Shown here: piece after piece, positions 17,620 to 27,444 of the stretch
Layout: each line of letters starts with the position of its first letter
Position numbering within the stretch: position 1 is the first letter of the stretch
DNA from: Vicinamibacteria bacterium
GTDB taxonomy: Bacteria > Acidobacteriota > Vicinamibacteria > Marinacidobacterales > Marinacidobacteraceae
DNA length: 64,000 nucleotides
Assembly (NCBI GenBank): GCA_964291235.2
Contig: OZ219816.1
Span: 1,056,001 to 1,120,000 of the forward strand
Reading direction: 5' to 3'
The notes under the pieces: model-generated
The model's input: only the letters and a program-made list of their open reading frames with translations
The model's database searches: none
Told to the model about the DNA's origin: nothing
Translations under genes and position numbers: made by a program

Positions 17620-20211
17620 ATGCACCTGCGTCCCAGCCTCGTCCTCGTCCTGTTGGCCACCCCGCTCTTCGCCGGGCCCCAGCGCTGGCCGCCGCCGCCC
17701 ATCATCCAGGGAGTGGCGGAGGCGTATCCGCCCGCCCGTCACGGTGGGAACTACATGCACAACTACTACTTCCCGCCGGCCCCGAGCAGCACTCCGTGGG
17801 CGCCGGCCTGGTCACCGGACGGGAAATCGATCGCGGTGGCGATGTCGGGCTCGATCTGGCGGGTGGACCCCGAAACCGGGATCGCTGACGAGCTGACCTC
17901 CGGGCCCGGCTACCACTCGCTACCCACCTGGTCGCCGGACGGGAGGTTCATCGTTTTCACGGTGGACCGGAACGGCCAGAACATCGGTCTTGCGCTCGTG
18001 GATCTGACGACGGGGGAGAGCCGGATGCTGACGGACGACGACTTCCTCTACATGGACCCGGCCTTCTCCCCGGACGGGAACCGGCTCGCCTACGTCTCCA
18101 CGAAGCCGTCGGGCTACTTCAATGTCTATGTCCGCGAGTTCGAGAACGGGGAGCTCGGGTCGGAAGAGATCGCCCTCACCCGGGACGAGAACTACGGGAA
18201 AGAGCGGCTCTACTTCGGCTCCTGGGACATGCACATCACCCCGGCCTGGATGCCGGACTCCCGGGAACTCCTGATGGTTTCGAACCACGAGGTGCCGCTC
18301 GGCTCGGGGAACGTGGTCCGGACTCCGATGGCGGTGGACGGCTTCGAGGAGGGGGTCGCCGTCCTCGCCGAACAATCCCTGTACCGGACCCGTCCGGACG
18401 TCTCGATCGACGGGAAGCGGTTCATCTATTCCTCGACGGCGGGCGCGGCGGATCAGTTCTCGAACCTCTACGTGCAGCCGACCGACGGCGGATCCCCCTA
18501 CAAGCTGACCTTTTTCGAGCACGACGCCTTCCACCCCCGCTGGTCCCCGGACGGCGAGTGGATCGCCTACATCGACAATTCCGGCGGACTGCCGCAGCTC
18601 GCTCTCCTGGAAACCTACGGGGGGAAGCGCCGCGTTCTCGAGATCACCCGGCGTAACTGGAGCCGGCCCATGGGGGTGCTCTCGGTGCGCACGGTGGACG
18701 CCGCGACGGATGAGGAGGTTGCCGCCCGCATCCACCTTGAGGCTGCCGACGGGCGTTTCTACGCGCCGCCGGATGCCTACGCCCGGATCGGCGGCGCGGC
18801 GGAACACTCGTTCCACCAGGCGGGGAGTTTCCGGATGGAGGTTCCCGTCGGTGCGCTCGAGATCGAGGCGGTGCGGGGCTTCGAGTACGAGCCGATGAGT
18901 GTACGGGTGGAAATCACGGCCGGTGATGTCACCGAGTTGACCCTCCGCCTCCCGCGGATCACGGACATGGCAGCGAAGGGGTGGTGGAGCGGTTCCACCC
19001 ACGTCCACATGAACTACGCCGGAAATCTCCACAACACGCTCGAAAACCTGATGTTCATGTCGGACGCCGAGGATCAGGACGTGGTGCTGGAGCAGGTCGC
19101 CAACAAGGACAACCGCATTCTCGACTACCAGCACTTCCTTCCCGGCGGGGGCGCGCATCCGCTCTCCACGGCGGACCGGGTGCTGGTGGTGGGCCAGGAA
19201 TACCGGCCGCCCTTCTACGGCCACGTCTTCTACTTCGGCCTTGAAGAGCACCTGATCTCGCCCTACACCACCGGCTACGAGGGCACGGGAATCGAGAGTC
19301 TTTATCCGTCGAACACCGACATGTTCCGAAAGGCGAAGGCTCAGGGTGCGACGGTGGGTTACGTGCACGCCTTCTTCGGAGAAAACGATCCGCTGGTCGG
19401 CCCGGAGGGAAGTCCTGGCAGCCTCGGTGGCGCGAAGGGATACATGGTGGATGCGGCCCTCGGCACCACGGACGCGGTGGAGTGGTCCTCGGCGTCGCGG
19501 GCGGGGTTCTTCCCGTGGTACGCCACCATGAACAACGGTCTCCGGGTCACTGCCGTCGGCGGCGAGGACTCCATCAGCAACATGCAGCGGTCCAAGCTGG
19601 TCGGTTCGGTGCGCACCTACGTGCACACCGGAGAGCGCGGGCTGGATCTGGACGCCTTCCTCGAAGGCATCCGGGAGGGCAGGGCATTCGTGAGTTGCGG
19701 GCCGGTGCTCGATTTCCGGGTCAATGGACGGATACCGGGGGACGAGGTACAGCTCCCGGAGTCTGGAGGCGAGGTGGAGTGGAGCGCCTGGGTTCGCTCC
19801 TCGACCCCGCTCGAGCGGGCGTGGATCGTTTCCGGCGGCGAGGACGTAGCCGAGGTGGCGCTCTCCGAGGATCGGCGTTCGGCCCGCGCGACCGGTCGCG
19901 TCGCGATGGAGCGGAGCGGCTGGATGATTCTCCGGGCGGAGGGAGCGCCGGAGGCAGCCCGCCCGCTGGACTGCGGCTACGCCCAGGCGTTCACGAATCC
20001 GGTCTGGGTCATGGCCGGCGACCAGCCGGTCCGCAGCGCCGCTGCCGCCGACTACTCGATTCGCTGGATCGACCGGCTCCGTGAGATGGCGGAAGCGTGG
20101 GAATACTGGCGGTCGGATGCCGAAAAGGCCCACGTGTATGCCCAGTTCGACGAGGCTCGGGCGGTCTACGAGGGGTTTCTCGTTGAGGCGCGCGCCCTGG
20201 GCCGAGAATGA
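17620..20211 (+). CDS. Exported PD40/TolB-like beta-propeller fused to CehA/McbA-family metallohydrolase
   Basis: Repeated PAWSPDG-like motifs; THVHMNY, GQEYRP..GH, YVHAF, GGEDS metal-site motifs; C-terminal AFTNPVWV. Confidence 0.75.
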   Translation: MHLRPSLVLVLLATPLFAGPQRWPPPPIIQGVAEAYPPARHGGNYMHNYYFPPAPSSTPWAPAWSPDGKSIAVAMSGSIWRVDPETGIADELTSGPGYHSLPTWSPDGRFIVFTVDRNGQNIGLALVDLTTGESRMLTDDDFLYMDPAFSPDGNRLAYVSTKPSGYFNVYVREFENGELGSEEIALTRDENYGKERLYFGSWDMHITPAWMPDSRELLMVSNHEVPLGSGNVVRTPMAVDGFEEGVAVLAEQSLYRTRPDVSIDGKRFIYSSTAGAADQFSNLYVQPTDGGSPYKLTFFEHDAFHPRWSPDGEWIAYIDNSGGLPQLALLETYGGKRRVLEITRRNWSRPMGVLSVRTVDAATDEEVAARIHLEAADGRFYAPPDAYARIGGAAEHSFHQAGSFRMEVPVGALEIEAVRGFEYEPMSVRVEITAGDVTELTLRLPRITDMAAKGWWSGSTHVHMNYAGNLHNTLENLMFMSDAEDQDVVLEQVANKDNRILDYQHFLPGGGAHPLSTADRVLVVGQEYRPPFYGHVFYFGLEEHLISPYTTGYEGTGIESLYPSNTDMFRKAKAQGATVGYVHAFFGENDPLVGPEGSPGSLGGAKGYMVDAALGTTDAVEWSSASRAGFFPWYATMNNGLRVTAVGGEDSISNMQRSKLVGSVRTYVHTGERGLDLDAFLEGIREGRAFVSCGPVLDFRVNGRIPGDEVQLPESGGEVEWSAWVRSSTPLERAWIVSGGEDVAEVALSEDRRSARATGRVAMERSGWMILRAEGAPEAARPLDCGYAQAFTNPVWVMAGDQPVRSAAAADYSIRWIDRLREMAEAWEYWRSDAEKAHVYAQFDEARAVYEGFLVEARALGRE

Positions 20212-20284
20212 GAAACCCGGTGACCAGCGGAATGGGCCGAGCCGCGTGGCCGGGTTCCGGCCGTCTGCCTGATACCCTCGGGCC

Positions 20285-20626
20285 ATGAGCCTGATGGGAC
20301 GGGCCCTCGGGACGAAGGCCCCGTTCGTTCCGCCGAATCAGATCGACGATGTGCTGCGCGACGACGAGGTACTTCTGCTGGATGTGCGGACCGCCGTGGA
20401 GCTGGCCGAATCGGGGACCATCCCGGGGGCGCTCCACATCCATCTCGGAGAACTCGCCGACCGGCTCGACGAGTTGCCCCGCGGCCAGCCGGTGCTGACC
20501 ACCTGAATGGTGGGCCCCCGGGCTGCGCGTGCCGCGGCCATTCTGGAGAAGGCAGGTTTCGAAGTCGTGGGTTATTGCGGCCTCAAGCAATACGCGGGCG
20601 CCCGGGAGTACCGCCCGCTCAACTGA
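20285..20626 (+). CDS. Rhodanese-domain selenoprotein (Sec at TGA 20504-20506), cytoplasmic, 113 aa
   Basis: LLDVRT..E...GTIPGALHIHL..L...LDELP..PVLTT-[TGA]-MVGPRAARAAAILEKAGFEVVGYCGL; read-through completes the rhodanese fold; hairpin follows the TGA. Confidence 0.85.
20507..20545 (+). promoter_or_regulatory. Putative bacterial SECIS element 1
   Basis: GGCTGCG-CGTGC-CGCGGCC stem-loop; loop starts 21 nt after the UGA and contains G. Confidence 0.7.
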
Positions 20627-20647
20627 TTCCCAATAGGAGGGTCCACG

Positions 20648-21100
20648 ATGAAGAGGACTTTTTCCCTCGCCGCGGCTGCCCTGACGGCGCTCGGTTGGGG
20701 CTGTGGCGGAGGCGAGCCGGCGGCTGAAATGCCCGCGGCCACCGAAGAGGCCACGCCGGAGCCGACGCCGGAGCCGACGCCGGAGCCAGCGCCGCGAGTC
20801 GAGGCCGAGGACATTGACGCCGCTCTCGCGAACGGCGCCGTTCTCCTCGATGTGCGCACCGATGAAGAACTCGCCGAGCACGGCACCATCGAGGGCTTCG
20901 TCCACATTCCGATCGATGAACTGGAGGCGAGGATCGGCGAACTCCCGGTGGGAGTTCCCATCCTCACCGCTTGACAGGGTGGCGGAAGAGCCGCGCGTGC
21001 CGCGGAGCTACTACAGGCGAACGGACACGAAGTCGTTGGTTTTTGTGGCCTGATGGGCTATGAAGGCGAGCGGGTCTATCCCGGGGCAGCGGAAGACTGA
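20648..21100 (+). CDS. Rhodanese-domain selenoprotein, lipoprotein (Sec at TGA 20972-20974), 150 aa
   Basis: AGGAGG RBS; lipobox-like LGWGC; EPTP-repeat linker; LLDVRT..GTIEGFVHIP...PILTA-[TGA]-QGGGRAARAAELLQANGHEVVGFCGL. Confidence 0.85.
20975..21010 (+). promoter_or_regulatory. Putative bacterial SECIS element 2
   Basis: CCGCG-CGTGC-CGCGG stem-loop with the same loop and the same 21-nt spacing from the UGA as element 1. Confidence 0.7.
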
Positions 21101-21104
21101 TTCG

Positions 21105-22403
21105 TCAGATCTGAACCGTCCGGAAGCCCGCCAACACGTCGCGGCGATCCGGACTGAAGAAATTTCGATAGCGGCCGGTCAGCAGCCGGCCGCGCGTCGC
21201 CCAGGCGCCGCCGCGCAGCACCTTGGTCTCGTGGAAACCGGCTTCGGAGTATTCCCGGTAGGCATCGGGACGGAAACCGGGGAACGGCCTGAAGGTGTCC
21301 CCGGTCCACTCCCAGACATTGCCAATCATCTGCCGGCAGCCGAAGGCGCTGTCCCCTTCGGGCAGCGCTCCCACGTCGAGGCAGCCCAGCGCCCAACCGT
21401 CCAGGTTCGCCCGCCGAGGGTCGGGAGGCGTTTCTCCCCATGGGTACGACCGCTTCTTCGGGGCGAGGGCGTCCCCGGCGGGTTCGCCGAGGGCGGCCGT
21501 TTCCCACTCGGCTTCCGAAGGGAGCCGCCGGCCGGCCCAGGCACAGTAGGCATTTGCCTCGAACCAGTTCACGTGGATGACGGGTTCGTCGGGCGCCAGC
21601 GGGCGGACCCGGTCGAAACGGCGTACCCGGAACCCGCCTTCCCGGTCGGGGCGCCAATAGACAGGATGCGCGGCGTCGGCTCGTTCCCGCCAATTCCAGC
21701 CCGCCCGGCTCCAGAACTCACGCTCGCGGTAGCCTCCGGCTGTCACGAATTCGGCGAACTCCGCGTTCGTGACCGGGGCTTTCGCGATCGCAAACGACTG
21801 GACGCGGAACGGATGCGCCCACTTCTCGTTGTCGTAGAGGAACGGTGCGTCCGGCTCAGCCCCCAGCCGAAACGTCCCGCCGGGAACGCGGGCGTCCCCC
21901 GGATGGCGGCCGCCCGGCGCTCGCCGGGGGCGCTCCCGTCCCAGAGCCGGGGCCGGGTAGCCGAGGGTCTGCCGGGAGTAGATGTACGCCTCGGTGTGCA
22001 TGTCCTCGTGGAAGGTGGCGAACTGGTACATGAAGCTGTCGCTCTCGGTCGCGAGGTTCTGATCCAACCGGTCGAGGCAGCGGCACTTGACCCTTTCGGC
22101 GTAGCCGATCACTTCCTCCATGCCGAGGAGAGGGAGGTCCCAGCGCAGTTCCTGGGCAACGGTCGCCGAGTCATAGATTTCGTCCCCCCTGGGCAGGATC
22201 GCTTCGCACCCGTGGAGTTCGCGCAGGATGAACCTCTCGTAGAACCACGCGACGTGCCCGATTTCCCAGCGCAGCGGGTTGACGATGCGCAGCCGCGACC
22301 CCATCCACTGGTCCTCGTCGAGCCCGACAATCAGTGCGAGACTGCGCCGGTGGGCATCTTCCATGATGGCGGCCAGGTGGTCGGCCGGGACACGCTTGGT
22401 CAT
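21105..22403 (-). CDS. senA: Selenoneine synthase SenA-like (EgtB/OvoA-family DinB + FGE-sulfatase non-heme iron enzyme)
   Basis: NPLRWEIGHVAWF and FHEDMHTEAYIYSRQTLGY His iron ligands; RRLPSEAEWE, GNVWEWT, VLRGGAWAT, YRNFF, AGFRT; adjacent to senB-like gene. Confidence 0.82.
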   Translation of the reverse strand: MTKRVPADHLAAIMEDAHRRSLALIVGLDEDQWMGSRLRIVNPLRWEIGHVAWFYERFILRELHGCEAILPRGDEIYDSATVAQELRWDLPLLGMEEVIGYAERVKCRCLDRLDQNLATESDSFMYQFATFHEDMHTEAYIYSRQTLGYPAPALGRERPRRAPGGRHPGDARVPGGTFRLGAEPDAPFLYDNEKWAHPFRVQSFAIAKAPVTNAEFAEFVTAGGYREREFWSRAGWNWRERADAAHPVYWRPDREGGFRVRRFDRVRPLAPDEPVIHVNWFEANAYCAWAGRRLPSEAEWETAALGEPAGDALAPKKRSYPWGETPPDPRRANLDGWALGCLDVGALPEGDSAFGCRQMIGNVWEWTGDTFRPFPGFRPDAYREYSEAGFHETKVLRGGAWATRGRLLTGRYRNFFSPDRRDVLAGFRTVQI

Positions 22404-22423
22404 GGTGGGAGCAGGCTTCGCCC

Positions 22424-23377
22424 GTGCGAATCATTGTAGTAACCCCCGCCGGAGCCAACTCGCGCGCCGGAAACCGGATCACCGCGGTCCGCTGGGCGCG
22501 GATGCTGCGGTCGCTGGGGCACCGAGTCGCCGTCCGGACGGAATGGGACGGCGGGAGCGCGGATGTGCTGATCGCGCTCCACGCCTGGCGGAGCGCTGCT
22601 TCCGTTGCCCGCTACCGATCCCGTTGCCCGAACGGTTCCCTGGTGGTCGCGTTGACCGGCACCGATGTGCACGGCTTTCTCGGCACCCATGAAGAGACGA
22701 CCCGGAGGTCGCTTGAACACGCGGACGTGCTGGTGGCGCTGCACGATCTGGTGTCCGATGCCATCCCACCGGAGTTTCGCAACAAGGTCCAGGTGGTGCA
22801 TCAGTCGGTGAAGAACCGCGGTATATCGCGCGATCCGTCGAGACGCACGTTTGACGTGTGCGTCGTCGGACACCTGCGCCGGGAAAAGGATCCGCTGCGG
22901 GCGGCGTACGCGGCGCGAGCGATCCCGGCGGCGTCCCGGTTGCGCGTTTTGCACGCCGGTGGAGCTCGGGATCCGGATTGGGGGGTCGCTGCGCAGGAGG
23001 AGATGGCGCGAAACCCGCGTTACCGCTGGCGCGGTGAACTTCCGGGGTGGCGCGTGCGCCGGCTCTACGCGAAAGCCCGGGCGATGGTGATCTCTTCGGT
23101 CGTGGAGGGGGGCGCCAATGTGGTGTCCGAGGCGGTGGTGGCCGGACTCCCGGTCATTGCGTCGCGCATCCCGGGGAACGTCGGCCTTCTCGGCCCCGGA
23201 CACCCGGGCTATTTCCCCCCGCAGGATACCGGGGCTCTCCGCGATCTCCTGTGGTGCGCGGAGAGTGATCCCGGTTTCCTCGAGGACCTCATGCGGCACG
23301 GGGCGGCGCGAGCGCCGCTGTTCGCCCCCGAGCGTGAACGCGAGGCCTGGCGCCGGCTACTCGCGGCGCTCTCGTAG
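22424..23377 (+). CDS. senB: Selenosugar synthase SenB-like (TIGR04348-type glycosyltransferase)
   Basis: IVVTPA...SRAGNRITAVRWARML, IALHAWRS, LTGTD, VGHLRREKDP, SS..EGGANVVSEA, GNVGLLG..HPGYFP. Confidence 0.88.
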   Translation: MRIIVVTPAGANSRAGNRITAVRWARMLRSLGHRVAVRTEWDGGSADVLIALHAWRSAASVARYRSRCPNGSLVVALTGTDVHGFLGTHEETTRRSLEHADVLVALHDLVSDAIPPEFRNKVQVVHQSVKNRGISRDPSRRTFDVCVVGHLRREKDPLRAAYAARAIPAASRLRVLHAGGARDPDWGVAAQEEMARNPRYRWRGELPGWRVRRLYAKARAMVISSVVEGGANVVSEAVVAGLPVIASRIPGNVGLLGPGHPGYFPPQDTGALRDLLWCAESDPGFLEDLMRHGAARAPLFAPEREREAWRRLLAALS

Positions 23378-23388
23378 TTCCGCCCCGA

Positions 23389-24858
23389 TCAGTTGATGAG
23401 GAATATCTTCTCGTTCGGCGGCTGTAGCCATTCGACGCCCTTGTTGGTCACGATTTGCGGGTTCGAGATGTTGATCGCGAGTGGGAAGCCCGGACGCTCC
23501 GGGATGTTCATATGCACCATGTACTCGTACGCGAAGATGTGATTCTCCTGGATCACCAGGTGGTGCCGGTCGGCGCGGAAATTCGTCACCGAGGGACCGA
23601 CGGTTCCGGTTCCGACGGTGCCGTGGGCGTGGTGGTCGATGGCGAAACCCGGCTGGTCGCTGTCGCCGAGCCCTTCCTGGATGATCACGTAGTCGAGGTT
23701 CCTGGCGCCGTCGGGGGTTCGGCCGATCCCCTGGATTCCGGAGTTGACGAACGGCGTGTAGATGTAGCCCGCCTCTTCCATGGCTGCGACCATGGCGTCG
23801 AGCGATTCCTTCGCCGTCATGCCCACCCGCATGTGGGGCCGCATGATCCACTGGCCGGCGATCGCGAAGTCGAAGAGTTTCTGGATGCTCTCCGGAGGGG
23901 CGGTTTCACCCTCGCGCAGAATGTAGGCGTGGGTTTTGGTGTCGGTCCCGAATCCCATGTAGTTGACCCCGACGTTGAAGGCGAAGAAGTCGCCGCGTTG
24001 GAAGACGTAGTCCTCGTGCCAGATCCAGTAGCGGGCGTCGGGCGGGTAGGGTGGGTCCTCGGATACCGCGGTGTAGTAGAGGCGGATGCCACCGCGTCCC
24101 CCGGTGCTGAAACCGGCCAGGTGCCGCTCATAGGCCCACTCCCGGGCCCAGGTGGTGATCTCCCGGATCGTGGTGCGTCCCGGCTCGATCCGGGCCAGGG
24201 CCTCCTGGGTGAGCTGCCGGGCGGCCTCGAGATTGTTGATCTGTTCGGCCACTTCCCGGACCGTTCGCCGCACCAGGAAGTCGGTGATCACGTTCTCGGC
24301 GGACACGATCCGCTCGGCATACCTGGGGCCGAGAATCCCGGTGAGCTTCAGGTAGGAGGTGTGGGATAGCCCGTCGGCCTCGGCGAGCCACTCGGAGGTG
24401 TTGACCGCAATGGTCTGCGGGTCCCGTTCGGCGACGAACTCCGTGAACTCGTCGTACACCTCGTCGCCATAGTTGAACGCCATCTGGTAGCCGCGGCCGT
24501 AACTGGAAATGGTCCTCGCGAAGGTGTCCGATCCGCGGACATCGATGTCCGGGACCGCGCCCGCACTACCGAAGGCGGCCCGCTCGATCCGGTCGCCGAG
24601 GTCGGTGAAGACGAGGTAGCCGTAGGTGTTGCCGAACCAGTAGGCCATCGGGTCGGGGTCGCCGTGCCGGGTGACGTGGATCCACATGTCCACGCCGTTG
24701 TCGCGCATGGCTCCCGGCAGGATGAGGTCGAGTTTCTCCCGCCTCATGAGGCGCATTACCTCGCCCCCACTGCTTGAGGTGTGGACGCCAGGTTGGGCGC
24801 CCGCGAGCGTGCCCGCAAGGAGCAGTGAAATCAGGATGGACGGGGTACGGACGGACAT
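23389..24858 (-). CDS. Exported M24-family (Xaa-Pro aminopeptidase-like) metallopeptidase
   Basis: Signal peptide; RREKLDLILPGAMRDNGVDMWI, YMGFGTDTKTHAYILREGE, HHAHG, AYEY. Confidence 0.7.
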   Translation of the reverse strand: MSVRTPSILISLLLAGTLAGAQPGVHTSSSGGEVMRLMRREKLDLILPGAMRDNGVDMWIHVTRHGDPDPMAYWFGNTYGYLVFTDLGDRIERAAFGSAGAVPDIDVRGSDTFARTISSYGRGYQMAFNYGDEVYDEFTEFVAERDPQTIAVNTSEWLAEADGLSHTSYLKLTGILGPRYAERIVSAENVITDFLVRRTVREVAEQINNLEAARQLTQEALARIEPGRTTIREITTWAREWAYERHLAGFSTGGRGGIRLYYTAVSEDPPYPPDARYWIWHEDYVFQRGDFFAFNVGVNYMGFGTDTKTHAYILREGETAPPESIQKLFDFAIAGQWIMRPHMRVGMTAKESLDAMVAAMEEAGYIYTPFVNSGIQGIGRTPDGARNLDYVIIQEGLGDSDQPGFAIDHHAHGTVGTGTVGPSVTNFRADRHHLVIQENHIFAYEYMVHMNIPERPGFPLAINISNPQIVTNKGVEWLQPPNEKIFLIN

Positions 24859-24996: not shown

Positions 24997-26172
24997 CTAC
25001 GCCGCCATCTTCTGGGCGGAGTCGAGGACGGTCGCGATCTTGGTGGCGGCGCGCTGCATCTCGTCCATCGTGCCGATGGAGATGCGGCACCGGGTCCACA
25101 GCGGCGGGAACGGCCGTCCGACGCGCACGCCCTCGGCGGCGCAGGCCGCCTGGAACTGCTCGATCGGCATTCCGACGTCCGCGAAGATGAAGTTCGTCTG
25201 GGCGTCGGTGGCGGTCAGGCCCCGGTCGGCGAAGAACTTGATGATGAAGTCCCGCGCCTCGGCGTTTCGCTTCTTCTCGTTCGGGAGGTAGTTGGGGTCC
25301 GCCTTGTCCCGCTCGAGGGCCGCGTTTGCGGCGACCAGCGCCGGGGTACTCACCGAGTTGCCCATGTGGAACTCACCGAGTTCCTCGATGGTTTCCTCGT
25401 GGGCGATCGCATAGCCGACCCGCAGACCCGCCATCCCGTAGGCCTTCGAGAAGGTGCGCGCCACGATAAGCCGTGGGTTTTCGATGGCCGTCGGGATCAT
25501 CGTCTCGTGGCCCGGAGTGGTCACGTAGTCGATATAGGCCTCGTCCACCAGGATGCGGAGGTTCTTCTCCACGTCGAGCGCCCGCATCAGGAAGTCCTTG
25601 CTCTGGGCAGGATCCACGAGCGTCGCAACCGGGTTGTTCGGATTGCAGAAGAACAGCATGCCGCTTCCCTTGCAGGCGTGGAGCGTCTGGTCCAGATCCA
25701 TCTTGAACTCTGAGTCCAGCGGCACCGCCTTCGTCCGGTAGCCCAACAGGTTTGCATAACCGAAGCACTCTTCGTAGGTCGGCAGCGACCCGACGAGCGC
25801 CTTTTCCTTGCTCGCGTACTGGTGCGTGCAGTCCACCAGGATCTGGGTGGAACCCGCGCCGATGAGGACGTTCTGCGGCTCGACGCCCCACTTCTCGGCA
25901 ATCGCCTCCTGCAGCGGACCCATGAACCGGAACGGATACCGCCCGGCGATCACCCCTTCGGGGCCAATGACCGAGTCGAGAGCGTCCATGACGGCTTCGC
26001 CGGGACCGAGCGAGTTCTCGTTGTTCGCGAGGTTGATTGCCTCTTCGGGAGCGATACCCATCTGGGCGGCGAAGGCGAGCTGCTCGCGGAGGCGCGTGCG
26101 CACCAGGGTCGCGGCGTAGATGCCGGCGGCGCCGGCGGAGGCATGACTCAGGAAACTGCGGCGGGAGAGCAT
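24997..26172 (-). CDS. Tat-tagged class I/II PLP aminotransferase (HisC-like)
   Basis: SRRSFL leader; NEN, CNPNNP, DEAY, RTFSKAYGMAGLRVGY, RISIGT. Confidence 0.85.
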   Translation of the reverse strand: MLSRRSFLSHASAGAAGIYAATLVRTRLREQLAFAAQMGIAPEEAINLANNENSLGPGEAVMDALDSVIGPEGVIAGRYPFRFMGPLQEAIAEKWGVEPQNVLIGAGSTQILVDCTHQYASKEKALVGSLPTYEECFGYANLLGYRTKAVPLDSEFKMDLDQTLHACKGSGMLFFCNPNNPVATLVDPAQSKDFLMRALDVEKNLRILVDEAYIDYVTTPGHETMIPTAIENPRLIVARTFSKAYGMAGLRVGYAIAHEETIEELGEFHMGNSVSTPALVAANAALERDKADPNYLPNEKKRNAEARDFIIKFFADRGLTATDAQTNFIFADVGMPIEQFQAACAAEGVRVGRPFPPLWTRCRISIGTMDEMQRAATKIATVLDSAQKMAA

Positions 26173-26250
26173 GGGGTGGCTACCTCCTCGTAGCGAGGGT
26201 TCTCGGCTGGTTCGTCAGGACATCCTGCGGGACGTTTCTCCCTCGGGTGG

Positions 26251-27444
26251 TCACTGTTGCTGGTTGTCGGTGGTGGCGAGCCCGAGCACTTCCGCGAATA
26301 CCGCGGTTGCGCGCTGCATCTCCTCGAGGGTGCCGATCGAGATGCGGGCGTGTGACTTTTCGTAGGGGGGGAAATCCCGTCCCACCATGATGCCCTGCTT
26401 CGCGCAGGCCTCACGGAACTCCTTGGCCGACCGTCCGATGTCCACGAAGAGGAAGTTCGTGTGGCTCGGCACCGGATCGAGCCCGTTGCTCGAGAAGAAG
26501 TCGAAGGTGAACTGGCGCGCGGCATCGTTCCGCTTGATTTCATTCTTGATGTAGTCCGGATCCTCAAGCGACGCCATGGCGGCGGCGATCGAGAGAACGG
26601 AGGTTCCGAACGTGAGCTGCAGCGGCGCGAGTTTCGCGATGGTGTCGGCCTGGCCGTAGGCGTAGCCGACCCGCAGCCCCGCCATGCCGTAGGCCTTCGA
26701 GAAGGTGCGGCCCACGAACACGTCGCGGTACTCCATCGCGAGTTCGGCGCCGGTGTCGAAACCCGGATGCGCGACATAGTCGTAATAGGCCTCGTCAAGA
26801 AGAATCGCGGTATAGGGAGATTCCTTCTTCACGAACTTCACGAAGTCCGTGATGTCGGCCAGCGAATGGACGGTGCCGGTGGGGTTGTTCGGGTTGCAGA
26901 GAAATACGAGTCCAGCGCCGATGGAGGCGCCGGCCATTTTCTCGAGGTCGAGCCCGAGGTCCCCCATCATCGGGATGGATTTGACGGACGCACCGAAGTA
27001 CTTCGCGGTCCGCACCGGGTTCTCGTAGGAGCACTCGCCGGTGACGAGAGGCCGGTCCGGCCCGGTGTAGATGCGGACCGCGTTGCGCAGGATCTCCGAG
27101 GAACCCGGTGCGAGAACCACGTGTTCGGCTTTGCCGCCGTACATTTCGCCGATCCGCTGCCGGAGATCGGTGCCGCTCACCTGCGCGTTCATCGGGTAGC
27201 GCATGATCGAGCCGTAGGCGCCGCGAAGTCCGGCCACCGCGGCCGGACCAGGACCGAGTGGGTTTTCGTTGCTGCTGATCCGGACCTCGTCGGCCTCGGG
27301 TGGCGGCACGAAAACCGGGGCTCCCCGAAAGCCGTTCTCGGCTTCCCAGGCCTCGCGGCCCCTGGCGCTGATCGCGTGGAGCGAAGCCGCACTTCCGGCT
27401 CCGCCGGACGCGAGACTGAGGAAACTGCGACGGTTCGTCTTCAT
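26251..27444 (-). CDS. Tat-tagged class I/II PLP aminotransferase (HisC-like), paralog
   Basis: NRRSFL leader; SSNENPLGP, CNPNNPTG, DEAY, RTFSKAYGMAGLRVGY. Confidence 0.85.
   Translation of the reverse strand: MKTNRRSFLSLASGGAGSAASLHAISARGREAWEAENGFRGAPVFVPPPEADEVRISSNENPLGPGPAAVAGLRGAYGSIMRYPMNAQVSGTDLRQRIGEMYGGKAEHVVLAPGSSEILRNAVRIYTGPDRPLVTGECSYENPVRTAKYFGASVKSIPMMGDLGLDLEKMAGASIGAGLVFLCNPNNPTGTVHSLADITDFVKFVKKESPYTAILLDEAYYDYVAHPGFDTGAELAMEYRDVFVGRTFSKAYGMAGLRVGYAYGQADTIAKLAPLQLTFGTSVLSIAAAMASLEDPDYIKNEIKRNDAARQFTFDFFSSNGLDPVPSHTNFLFVDIGRSAKEFREACAKQGIMVGRDFPPYEKSHARISIGTLEEMQRATAVFAEVLGLATTDNQQQ

Follow-up and report, generated by a model that had tools for sequence, protein, structure and literature searches.

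Selenoneine-type senAB genes beside two predicted selenocysteine rhodaneses in one genus of Vicinamibacteria: a probably insertional adjacency

We analyzed a four-gene locus at positions 20285-23377 of the window, by which we mean the whole stretch of 64,000 nucleotides G000:C2:1056001-1120000; the host, G000, is a soil bacterium of the phylum Acidobacteriota, class Vicinamibacteria, with a genome of 3.45 Mb in two contigs and about 68% G+C. The locus holds a tandem pair of rhodanese genes (rhd1 and rhd2) predicted to encode selenocysteine (Sec) proteins, a convergent senA, and a divergent senB, the latter two being genes of the selenoneine pathway. Our analysis indicates that the adjacency is probably coincidental and insertional, with a laterally acquired senAB lying beside a resident pair of Sec-rhodaneses. 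Both gene sets are known families, and a new selenium-handling system, as put forward in the original prediction made from the sequence alone, is not supported beyond an adjacency that is inherited within one genus.

Results

Gene layout of the locus

20285-20626, + strand: rhd1, predicted single-domain rhodanese selenoprotein of 113 residues (read-through translation, PF00581)
20648-21100, + strand: rhd2, predicted rhodanese selenoprotein of 150 residues, with GGAGGG upstream of its ATG
21105-22403, - strand: senA, predicted selenoneine (selenoxide) synthase of 432 amino acids, with DinB_2 and FGE-sulfatase domains (Pfam)
22424-23377, + strand: senB, predicted selenosugar synthase, a TIGR04348 glycosyltransferase of 317 amino acids

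The coordinates originally proposed were confirmed: rhd2, read through its TGA, ends at 21100, and exactly four bases (21101-21104) separate its stop from that of the convergent SenA-like gene. Co-transcription of rhd2 and senA failed as a proposition, the two genes being convergent on opposite strands with this 4 bp gap; senA and senB are divergent, with starts 20 bp apart. The SenB-like glycosyltransferase announced after senA scored 399.1 bits on TIGR04348 (cut-off 300), and the window was correctly said to lack senC, the sole selD above cut-off lying on the other contig, C1. The closest named relatives at the locus are metagenome-assembled genomes (MAGs) labelled Vicinamibacteria and Acidobacteria.

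Conservation in the genus and its sister genera

The four-gene arrangement recurs in 14 of 15 congeneric genomes besides that of G000: the 3.09 kb stretch is matched over its whole length and in one piece at 77-79% nucleotide identity in 12, and in pieces with small insertions in two. No match to the stretch was found in the remaining genome (G407, 89% complete). Where the region is available, the order in the genus is a TolB/CehA-like gene, rhd1 and rhd2 on one strand, senA and senB in divergent orientation, and then, on the strand of senA, an M24-like gene and two aminotransferase genes (AT1 and AT2). The flanking proteins are 90-95% identical across the genus, and the whole region is syntenic, not the four genes alone. 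In the sister genera of the same family (G416, G417, and G418, the last two being single-contig genomes 89% and 94% complete) the rhodanese pair alone matched, and neither TIGR04348 (SenB) nor SenA gave a match above cut-off in these three genomes. The order in G417 is AT2, AT1, rhd1, rhd2, and an amidohydrolase gene, all on one strand; G418 has AT2 and AT1 on one strand and, further on, rhd2 and rhd1 on the other. Since the sister genera keep the pair beside the same aminotransferases without senAB, the rhodanese pair predates the senAB neighborhood and persists without it. The proposed senAB insertion is placed between the rhodanese pair and the aminotransferase genes, the limits of the inserted segment being approximate.

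An order-level relative (G422:C16:124757-126992) carries senA and senB each split into two frames, one piece with a TGA, which suggests decay or sequencing frameshifts.

Survey of senB loci

Among 401 Acidobacteriota genomes, TIGR04348 matched in 34, 33 of them above cut-off. Loci reaching up to 8 kb on each side of senB were taken from 32 of the 33 genomes other than G000 (the unpublished G049 was left out), and the species genomes of GTDB gave 80 further loci, two from this genus, with rhd1-rhd2, and 78 others mostly from Pseudomonadota. Homologues of rhd1 or rhd2 were found by tblastn (E ≤ 1e-3) in none of the 32 Acidobacteriota loci, both genes being recovered in the window used as control, and among the 110 senB loci from other genera (32 from Acidobacteriota and 78 others), none had a Sec-rhodanese within reach. 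A rhodanese gene of any kind, sought with a local profile to which 20 Cys-rhodanese stretches had been added and by phmmer with the two-domain TST-type rhodanese of G000, was present in four of the 110 (L113, L120, L136, and L159); all are Cys-type and three were confirmed by Pfam. These four genes in 1.54 Mb compare with 38 domains in 15.6 Mb of five senB-bearing Pseudomonadota genomes, so that rhodanese density near senB is similar to the genomic background, at about 2.5 per Mb, a rough comparison of genes with domains. The original prediction expected rhodaneses to accompany senAB elsewhere, an expectation that these counts contradict.

The senA gene was beside senB in 22 of the 32 Acidobacteriota loci, and selD was nearby in three. 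In the flanks of the other ten (L030, L036, L043, L044, L046, L047, L048, L049, L050, and L054) no senA-like gene was seen; family f16 contributes all six of its loci, that of the 3-contig genome G002 included, and the pattern suggests an 'orphan' SenB or a different partner enzyme. Moreover, the SenB genes of two congeneric Acidobacteriota, at L023:8040-8963 (- strand, G006) and L025:1975-2919 (+ strand, G132), have an in-frame TGA at codon 4 (M-R-I-*-I-V-T-P-A), which falls in the first beta-strand at a residue that is variable in other SenB proteins, and could reflect a mis-set start, read-through, or Sec.

Survey of Sec-rhodaneses

Searching the same 401 genomes with rhd1 identified at least 35 genomes besides G000 whose match contains one in-frame TGA, at least 21 of them at E ≤ 1e-19 and 40-56% identity, and the predicted Sec-rhodanese family is widespread in Acidobacteriota. 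Nine of the 35 listed genomes also carry senB (G002, G049, G055, G094, G112, G225, G235, G327, and G385), and in none are the two genes adjacent: in G002 and G112 they share a contig but are separated by more than 2.3 Mb and more than 1.38 Mb, respectively, and in the rest they occupy different contigs. Adjacency across a contig break is possible in the fragmented MAGs, but the better assemblies of the same family (G002 and G055) speak against it. Among the neighbors of the Sec-rhodanese in 21 other loci, neither a recurring partner nor a selenium gene was found (62 of the 70 flanking open reading frames, ORFs, the near-duplicate loci L065, L071, and L074 being left out). None of senA, senB, and selD occurred in the flanks of 16 metagenome rhodanese loci, whose short contigs (1.0-9.6 kb) give this result little weight.

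In one genus, a class-V aminotransferase gene (L062:115-1257, + strand; also in L065) precedes the Sec-rhodanese gene (L062:1465-1797). This is the fold of cysteine desulfurases and selenocysteine lyases, and the pairing is a classical one for sulfur or selenium mobilization.

Origin of the senAB cassette

In a SenB tree, the 12 rows of the genus form one clade with 100% support, which groups with 65 rows, nearly all from Pseudomonadota; a split with 99% support divides this group from all 31 remaining Acidobacteriota rows. The Pseudomonadota loci mostly show senA and senB in divergent orientation with starts about 20-40 bp apart, usually followed by a convergent selD, and senA, senB, and selD occurred together in 46 of the 80 loci of the GTDB scan. 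The simplest account would be that the ancestor of the genus acquired a senAB cassette of Pseudomonadota type, lacking senC, which inserted beside the rhodanese pair.

The window resembles the senA-senB-senC cluster of selenoneine biosynthesis (Kayrouz et al., 2022; 10.1101/2022.04.13.486033) in SenA, SenB, the divergent layout that most Pseudomonadota loci show, and a genomic EgtD. It differs from that cluster in having no adjacent senC, the host SelD being unlinked and carrying an N-terminal oxidoreductase-like extension. Nonetheless, a missing adjacent senC is not unusual, since three-gene clusters account for 827 of 2,353 TIGR04348 genes (10.1101/2022.04.13.486033) and selD was near senB in only the 46 of 80 and 3 of 32 loci given above.

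Rhodanese genes as predicted selenoproteins

In translation table 11, the ORFs of rhd1 and rhd2 each end at a TGA, and reading through it completes a rhodanese domain in frame (PF00581 across the TGA: 45.6 bits for rhd1 and 42.3 bits for rhd2, cut-off 22.2). The in-frame TGA of rhd1 is at 20504-20506 (U74, loop U-M-V-G-P-R) and that of rhd2 at 20972-20974 (U109, loop U-Q-G-G-G-R); the stop of rhd2 (21098-21100) and the true stop of rhd1 are also TGA. Both in-frame codons occupy the first position of the C-X4-R catalytic loop, and when three Cys-type rhodaneses are aligned with the two proteins, U lines up with their catalytic Cys. Orthologues were gathered from phylum genomes, the genus, and the family (48 sequences, 44 distinct, L082 coming from the unpublished G049). 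All 44 distinct sequences, from many families, share the in-frame TGA and a conserved protein downstream, with conservation on both sides that extends to the R of the CX4R loop and through the remainder of the domain, which argues that the TGA codons are not chance stops; among metagenome relatives, an in-frame stop was present in 14 of 16 loci. On this evidence, together with the catalytic Cys alignment, rhd1 and rhd2 are predicted selenoproteins with Sec in place of the catalytic Cys, as the original prediction held.

A candidate SECIS (selenocysteine insertion sequence) hairpin follows each codon:

20521-20539, + strand: SECIS-like hairpin of rhd1, GGCUGCG / loop CGUGC / CGCGGCC, beginning 17 nt past the UGA
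20991-21005, + strand: SECIS-like hairpin core of rhd2, CCGCG / CGUGC / CGCGG

Across the 57 nt after the UGA in the 44 distinct sequences, the consensus hairpin (CCGCG, loop CGUGC, CGCGG) lies at +20 to +34 after the U of UGA, and its five stem pairs are formed in 42-44 sequences. Compensatory changes are few (GC to CG in two; CG to UA, UG, or GU in six). Third-codon entropy is 0.27-0.79 bits in the stem vs 1.4-1.9 at most flanking third positions, and these frozen synonymous sites point to selection on RNA, as expected of a bacterial SECIS. The hairpin is visible by comparative alignment only: single-sequence folding after each TGA was not more stable than shuffles (z = +2.5 and -0.25), and Rfam gave no SECIS match in 19500-24000. 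A 19-nt core after the UGA (GAGCCGCGCGTGCCGCGGC or near variants) is near-identical in nucleotides across families of the phylum (loci L056-L097); it encodes only R-A-A-R-A-A and could be a search pattern for this Sec-rhodanese family.

In Rhd2, as in many orthologues, the N-terminus runs from a basic into a hydrophobic stretch that closes with a Cys and leads into a Pro/Glu-rich linker, and Rhd2 is probably a lipoprotein located outside the cytoplasm. No signal peptide was seen at the N-terminus of Rhd1, which is cytoplasmic. A further Cys conserved in the family (G-F-C-G-L), some 24 residues beyond U, could resolve a selenenylsulfide; it is not essential in Rhd1, since Ser takes its place there in several species of the genus.

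Regarding known families, the 'LYCAU' rhodanese model NF041203 gave 19.6 bits for rhd1 (cut-off 115) and no match for rhd2. A better likeness is found in the rhodanese-related sulfurtransferase selenoproteins of 'UxxG' forms 2 and 4 catalogued in the available part of a 2026 review (PMC13188914), which likewise have one PF00581 domain whose catalytic Cys is replaced by Sec; the motif reads UQGG in rhd2 and UMVG in rhd1. The match is by motif and domain description, so that either form is possible, and the present genes differ from the catalogue entry in being a tandem pair, one with a lipoprotein-like signal. SelU, the rhodanese enzyme that is the tRNA 2-selenouridine synthase (10.1101/2022.04.13.486033, in its available text), likewise has a rhodanese domain whose active-site nucleophile moves sulfur or selenium, as expected for rhd1 and rhd2. 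The same is true of EanB, which is named an oxygen-independent ergothioneine synthase in the literature sections available to us. Both SelU and EanB are large multi-domain Cys enzymes, whereas rhd1 and rhd2 encode Sec domains of about 100 residues with no detected similarity to them beyond the fold family. EanB has the rhodanese fold.

Identity of SenA and SenB

The identities suggested for both sen genes were upheld by profile models. The senA product scored 475.2 bits on NF041186 (cut-off 420), and stayed below the cut-offs of EgtB (TIGR03440, 316.6 bits vs 360) and of the OvoA N-terminal model (144.2 vs 400); clustering with sulfur-specific EgtB, the outcome that would have spoken against the original prediction, was thus not seen. 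For SenB, the solved SenB chains 8jjn and 8fbx were matched over residues 3-314 at E = 1.9e-54 to 2.5e-54. In a plain sequence search, solved structures ranked as follows against the senA product:

OvsA-YNF mutant, 8ux5: 301.9 bits
OvsA wild type, 8u41: 292.1 bits
EgtB, 4x8b: 271.3 bits
Variovorax SenA, 8k5i: 207.6 bits

Substrate and regiochemistry are set by M401, Q430, and A431 in OvsA vs Y, N, and F in SenA, and OvsA acquires the specificity of SenA through the exchanges M401Y, Q430N, and A431F (Kayrouz et al., 2024; PMC11030361, as far as its text is available). Aligned with 8ux5, the SenA of the window has Y, N, and F at these positions together with the catalytic Tyr. It also has histidines matching the 'GH' and 'HxxxH' histidines of OvsA, which would be candidates for the three-His iron site of the DinB domain. 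Since the gene passes NF041186, fails the EgtB cut-off, carries the Y/N/F residues, and coexists with a separate EgtB and EgtD in the genome, we predict that it is SenA and not a sulfur-type EgtB.

Selenium and ergothioneine machinery of the host

The genome carries a complete set of Sec-decoding genes: selA (498 bits), selB (285.7 bits, 311 with its C-terminal piece), tRNA-Sec (69.7 bits), and a single selD above cut-off (C1:1307759-1308700, 249.5 bits), which is unlinked to senAB. The original prediction would have been undermined by a genome devoid of selD, and this is not the case. Furthermore, egtB (456.5 bits) adjoins egtD (329.6 bits, cut-off 290.9) at C2:210164-212357, and the presence of EgtD beside a separate true EgtB means that hercynine is available. 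With selD and EgtD both present, the needs of the selenoneine pathway are covered at the genome level.

The SelD of G000 has a Cys-type active site and is the C-terminal part of an open frame (C1:1306427-1308814) of about 795 residues, or about 758 from the candidate start, whose N-terminal extension resembles a pyridine-nucleotide-disulfide/NADH-dehydrogenase-type oxidoreductase (GGGHSH... motif). Fusions of an oxidoreductase with SelD have already been described. Among the Acidobacteriota selD matches listed, frames in several other genomes are likewise 730-820 residues long, and most matches have one in-frame TGA (Sec-type SelD), unlike the Cys-type SelD of G000.

Discussion

Under the reading that we consider probable, the two modules need no interaction. 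The resident Rhd1 and Rhd2 would be sulfurtransferase-type rhodaneses using a selenolate instead of a thiolate, their Sec being decoded by the host SelA, SelB, and tRNA-Sec with the help of the hairpin that lies some 17 nt past the UGA. SenB would use selenophosphate from the single fused SelD, encoded elsewhere in the genome, to make a selenosugar, and SenA would couple the selenosugar to hercynine from the unlinked EgtD, giving selenoneine; in the available texts of 10.1101/2022.04.13.486033 and PMC11030361 these two steps are the established sen pathway. The locus would then illustrate clearly how senAB can spread by lateral transfer in the absence of senC, drawing on a housekeeping SelD that is fused, next to a well-supported Sec-rhodanese family of Acidobacteriota in which the SECIS core is unusually invariant and one paralogue is probably exported. 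It also warns against reading shared function into an adjacency whose conservation is limited to one genus.

Several points weigh against this interpretation. The arrangement is tightly packed (spacers of 4 bp and 20 bp) in 12 of the 15 congeneric species at about 78% nucleotide identity, so that the adjacency is too old for a very recent accident and linkage may be under selection in the genus; synteny is just as strong in the flanking genes, which weakens the argument. Selenium is required by both modules, which depend on the same SelD, and a senAB without senC needs another selenium route, for which a cytoplasmic Sec-rhodanese is a plausible carrier. At the genome level, with selD present in 304 of the 401 Acidobacteriota genomes, senB and TGA-rhodanese overlap in nine selD-positive genomes vs about 3.6 expected (33 x 33 / 303). 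We do not read this excess as a functional signal, because five of the nine genomes belong to a single family (f16) and selenium is a requirement of both traits; one of the nine (G049) is unpublished. The surveys have their own limits: 18 of the 32 Acidobacteriota and 49 of the 78 other senB loci reach at least 16 kb, the rest being ended by contigs, and the local rhodanese profile is weak for two-domain TST-type proteins, which were covered by the single-sequence search only. The SenB tree (121 rows) is an unrooted FastTree tree, and since it is also a quick one, we infer the direction of transfer from it and do not read it directly.

These points feed the alternative of a genus-specific selenium island, in which the Sec-rhodaneses, Rhd1 especially, take up, carry, or recycle selenium for the fused SelD and SenB, as a perselenide or selenenylsulfide on Sec or by recovery from spent selenoneine or selenosugar. 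Besides the modest overlap in the phylum, it can draw on the tight four-gene block kept by 14 of 15 congeners, on the lack of senC in cis with a single selD in the genome, on the fact that two of only three rhodanese genes of G000 are at this locus, and on the Sec-rhodanese beside a class-V aminotransferase at L062, which hints at sulfur or selenium mobilization. We nevertheless consider it unlikely, given that the genes are convergent and not one operon, that the rhodanese pair is unchanged in three sister genera without senB, that none of the 110 other senB loci has a Sec-rhodanese, and that the overlap is confounded by phylogeny and a shared dependence on selD. In addition, Rhd2 looks exported, in a compartment different from that of SenA, SenB, and SelD, and if outside the cytoplasm it could not pass selenium directly to SelD or SenB. 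A more specific form, with Rhd1 recruited as selenium carrier to the fused SelD and on to SenB and Rhd2 capturing selenium outside the cytoplasm, appears quite improbable. The broader claim of the original prediction, that the locus links Sec decoding and selenoneine in a new system, therefore found no support outside the genus: it rests on a one-genus adjacency, as judged from the other senB loci, the sister genera without senB, and the lipoprotein-like Rhd2. If such a link were true, it would provide the first case of a protein dedicated to delivering selenium to the pathway of a small-molecule selenometabolite, and a function for the long-catalogued, uncharacterized rhodanese selenoproteins. 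Our literature search found no paper linking rhodaneses with senAB, although the supplements of the 2022 and 2024 preprints on sen and ovs neighborhoods could list such genes; in the accessible portions of the selenoneine literature, the term rhodanese is used only for SelU or for sulfurtransferases at large.

Two further alternatives concern the gene identities themselves. That the SenA-like gene encodes a sulfur-type EgtB or an ovoselenol synthase (OvsA) with a different product could be argued from the structure ranking, where both OvsA entries and EgtB exceed the Variovorax SenA, and from the ovs cluster, which likewise works with a SenB/SenC-type selenosugar supply and whose OvsA is the closest solved structure (Kayrouz et al., 2024; PMC11030361, available text). 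It is very unlikely, however, as the gene passes the SenA model and not that of EgtB, a separate true EgtB and EgtD are encoded in the genome, and no OvsM-like methyltransferase was seen beside senA in the window; moreover, the window SenA has the hercynine-type Y/N/F where OvsA has M/Q/A, and the YNF mutant scores above wild-type OvsA. Finally, the in-frame TGAs might be true stops or decay, leaving truncated rhodanese ORFs or pseudogenes, a view to which the folding result, the absence of an Rfam match, and the use of TGA as the actual stop codon of both genes lend something. We regard it as scarcely credible in light of a domain conserved after the TGA in 44 distinct sequences of many families, the hairpin with its frozen synonymous sites, a complete Sec machinery, and a TGA placed exactly at the catalytic Cys column.

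Neighboring genes

17620-20211, + strand: TolB-like beta-propeller / CehA-McbA metallohydrolase gene, upstream of rhd1
23389-24858, - strand: M24-like gene
24997-26172 and 26251-27444, - strand: HisC/PtaA-like aminotransferase genes (AT1 and AT2), with RRSFL N-termini

The TolB-like/CehA-McbA gene is syntenic across the genus and is near the rhodanese pair in G417 too. A 486-aa ORF beside rhd2 in G418 was considered as a counterpart of the M24-like gene and rejected, being not homologous and looking like a wrong-frame ORF. The HisC/PtaA-like aminotransferase pair flanks the rhodanese pair in all three genera examined, including the sister genera without senAB, and in G417 it is co-directional with rhd1-rhd2 across short gaps; the association of the rhodanese pair with these aminotransferases may be an older one. 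The two aminotransferases are paralogous pyridoxal phosphate (PLP) enzymes and carry twin-arginine-like N-termini (SRRSFL and NRRSFL) in the window (24997-27444) and at L094:10005-12449.

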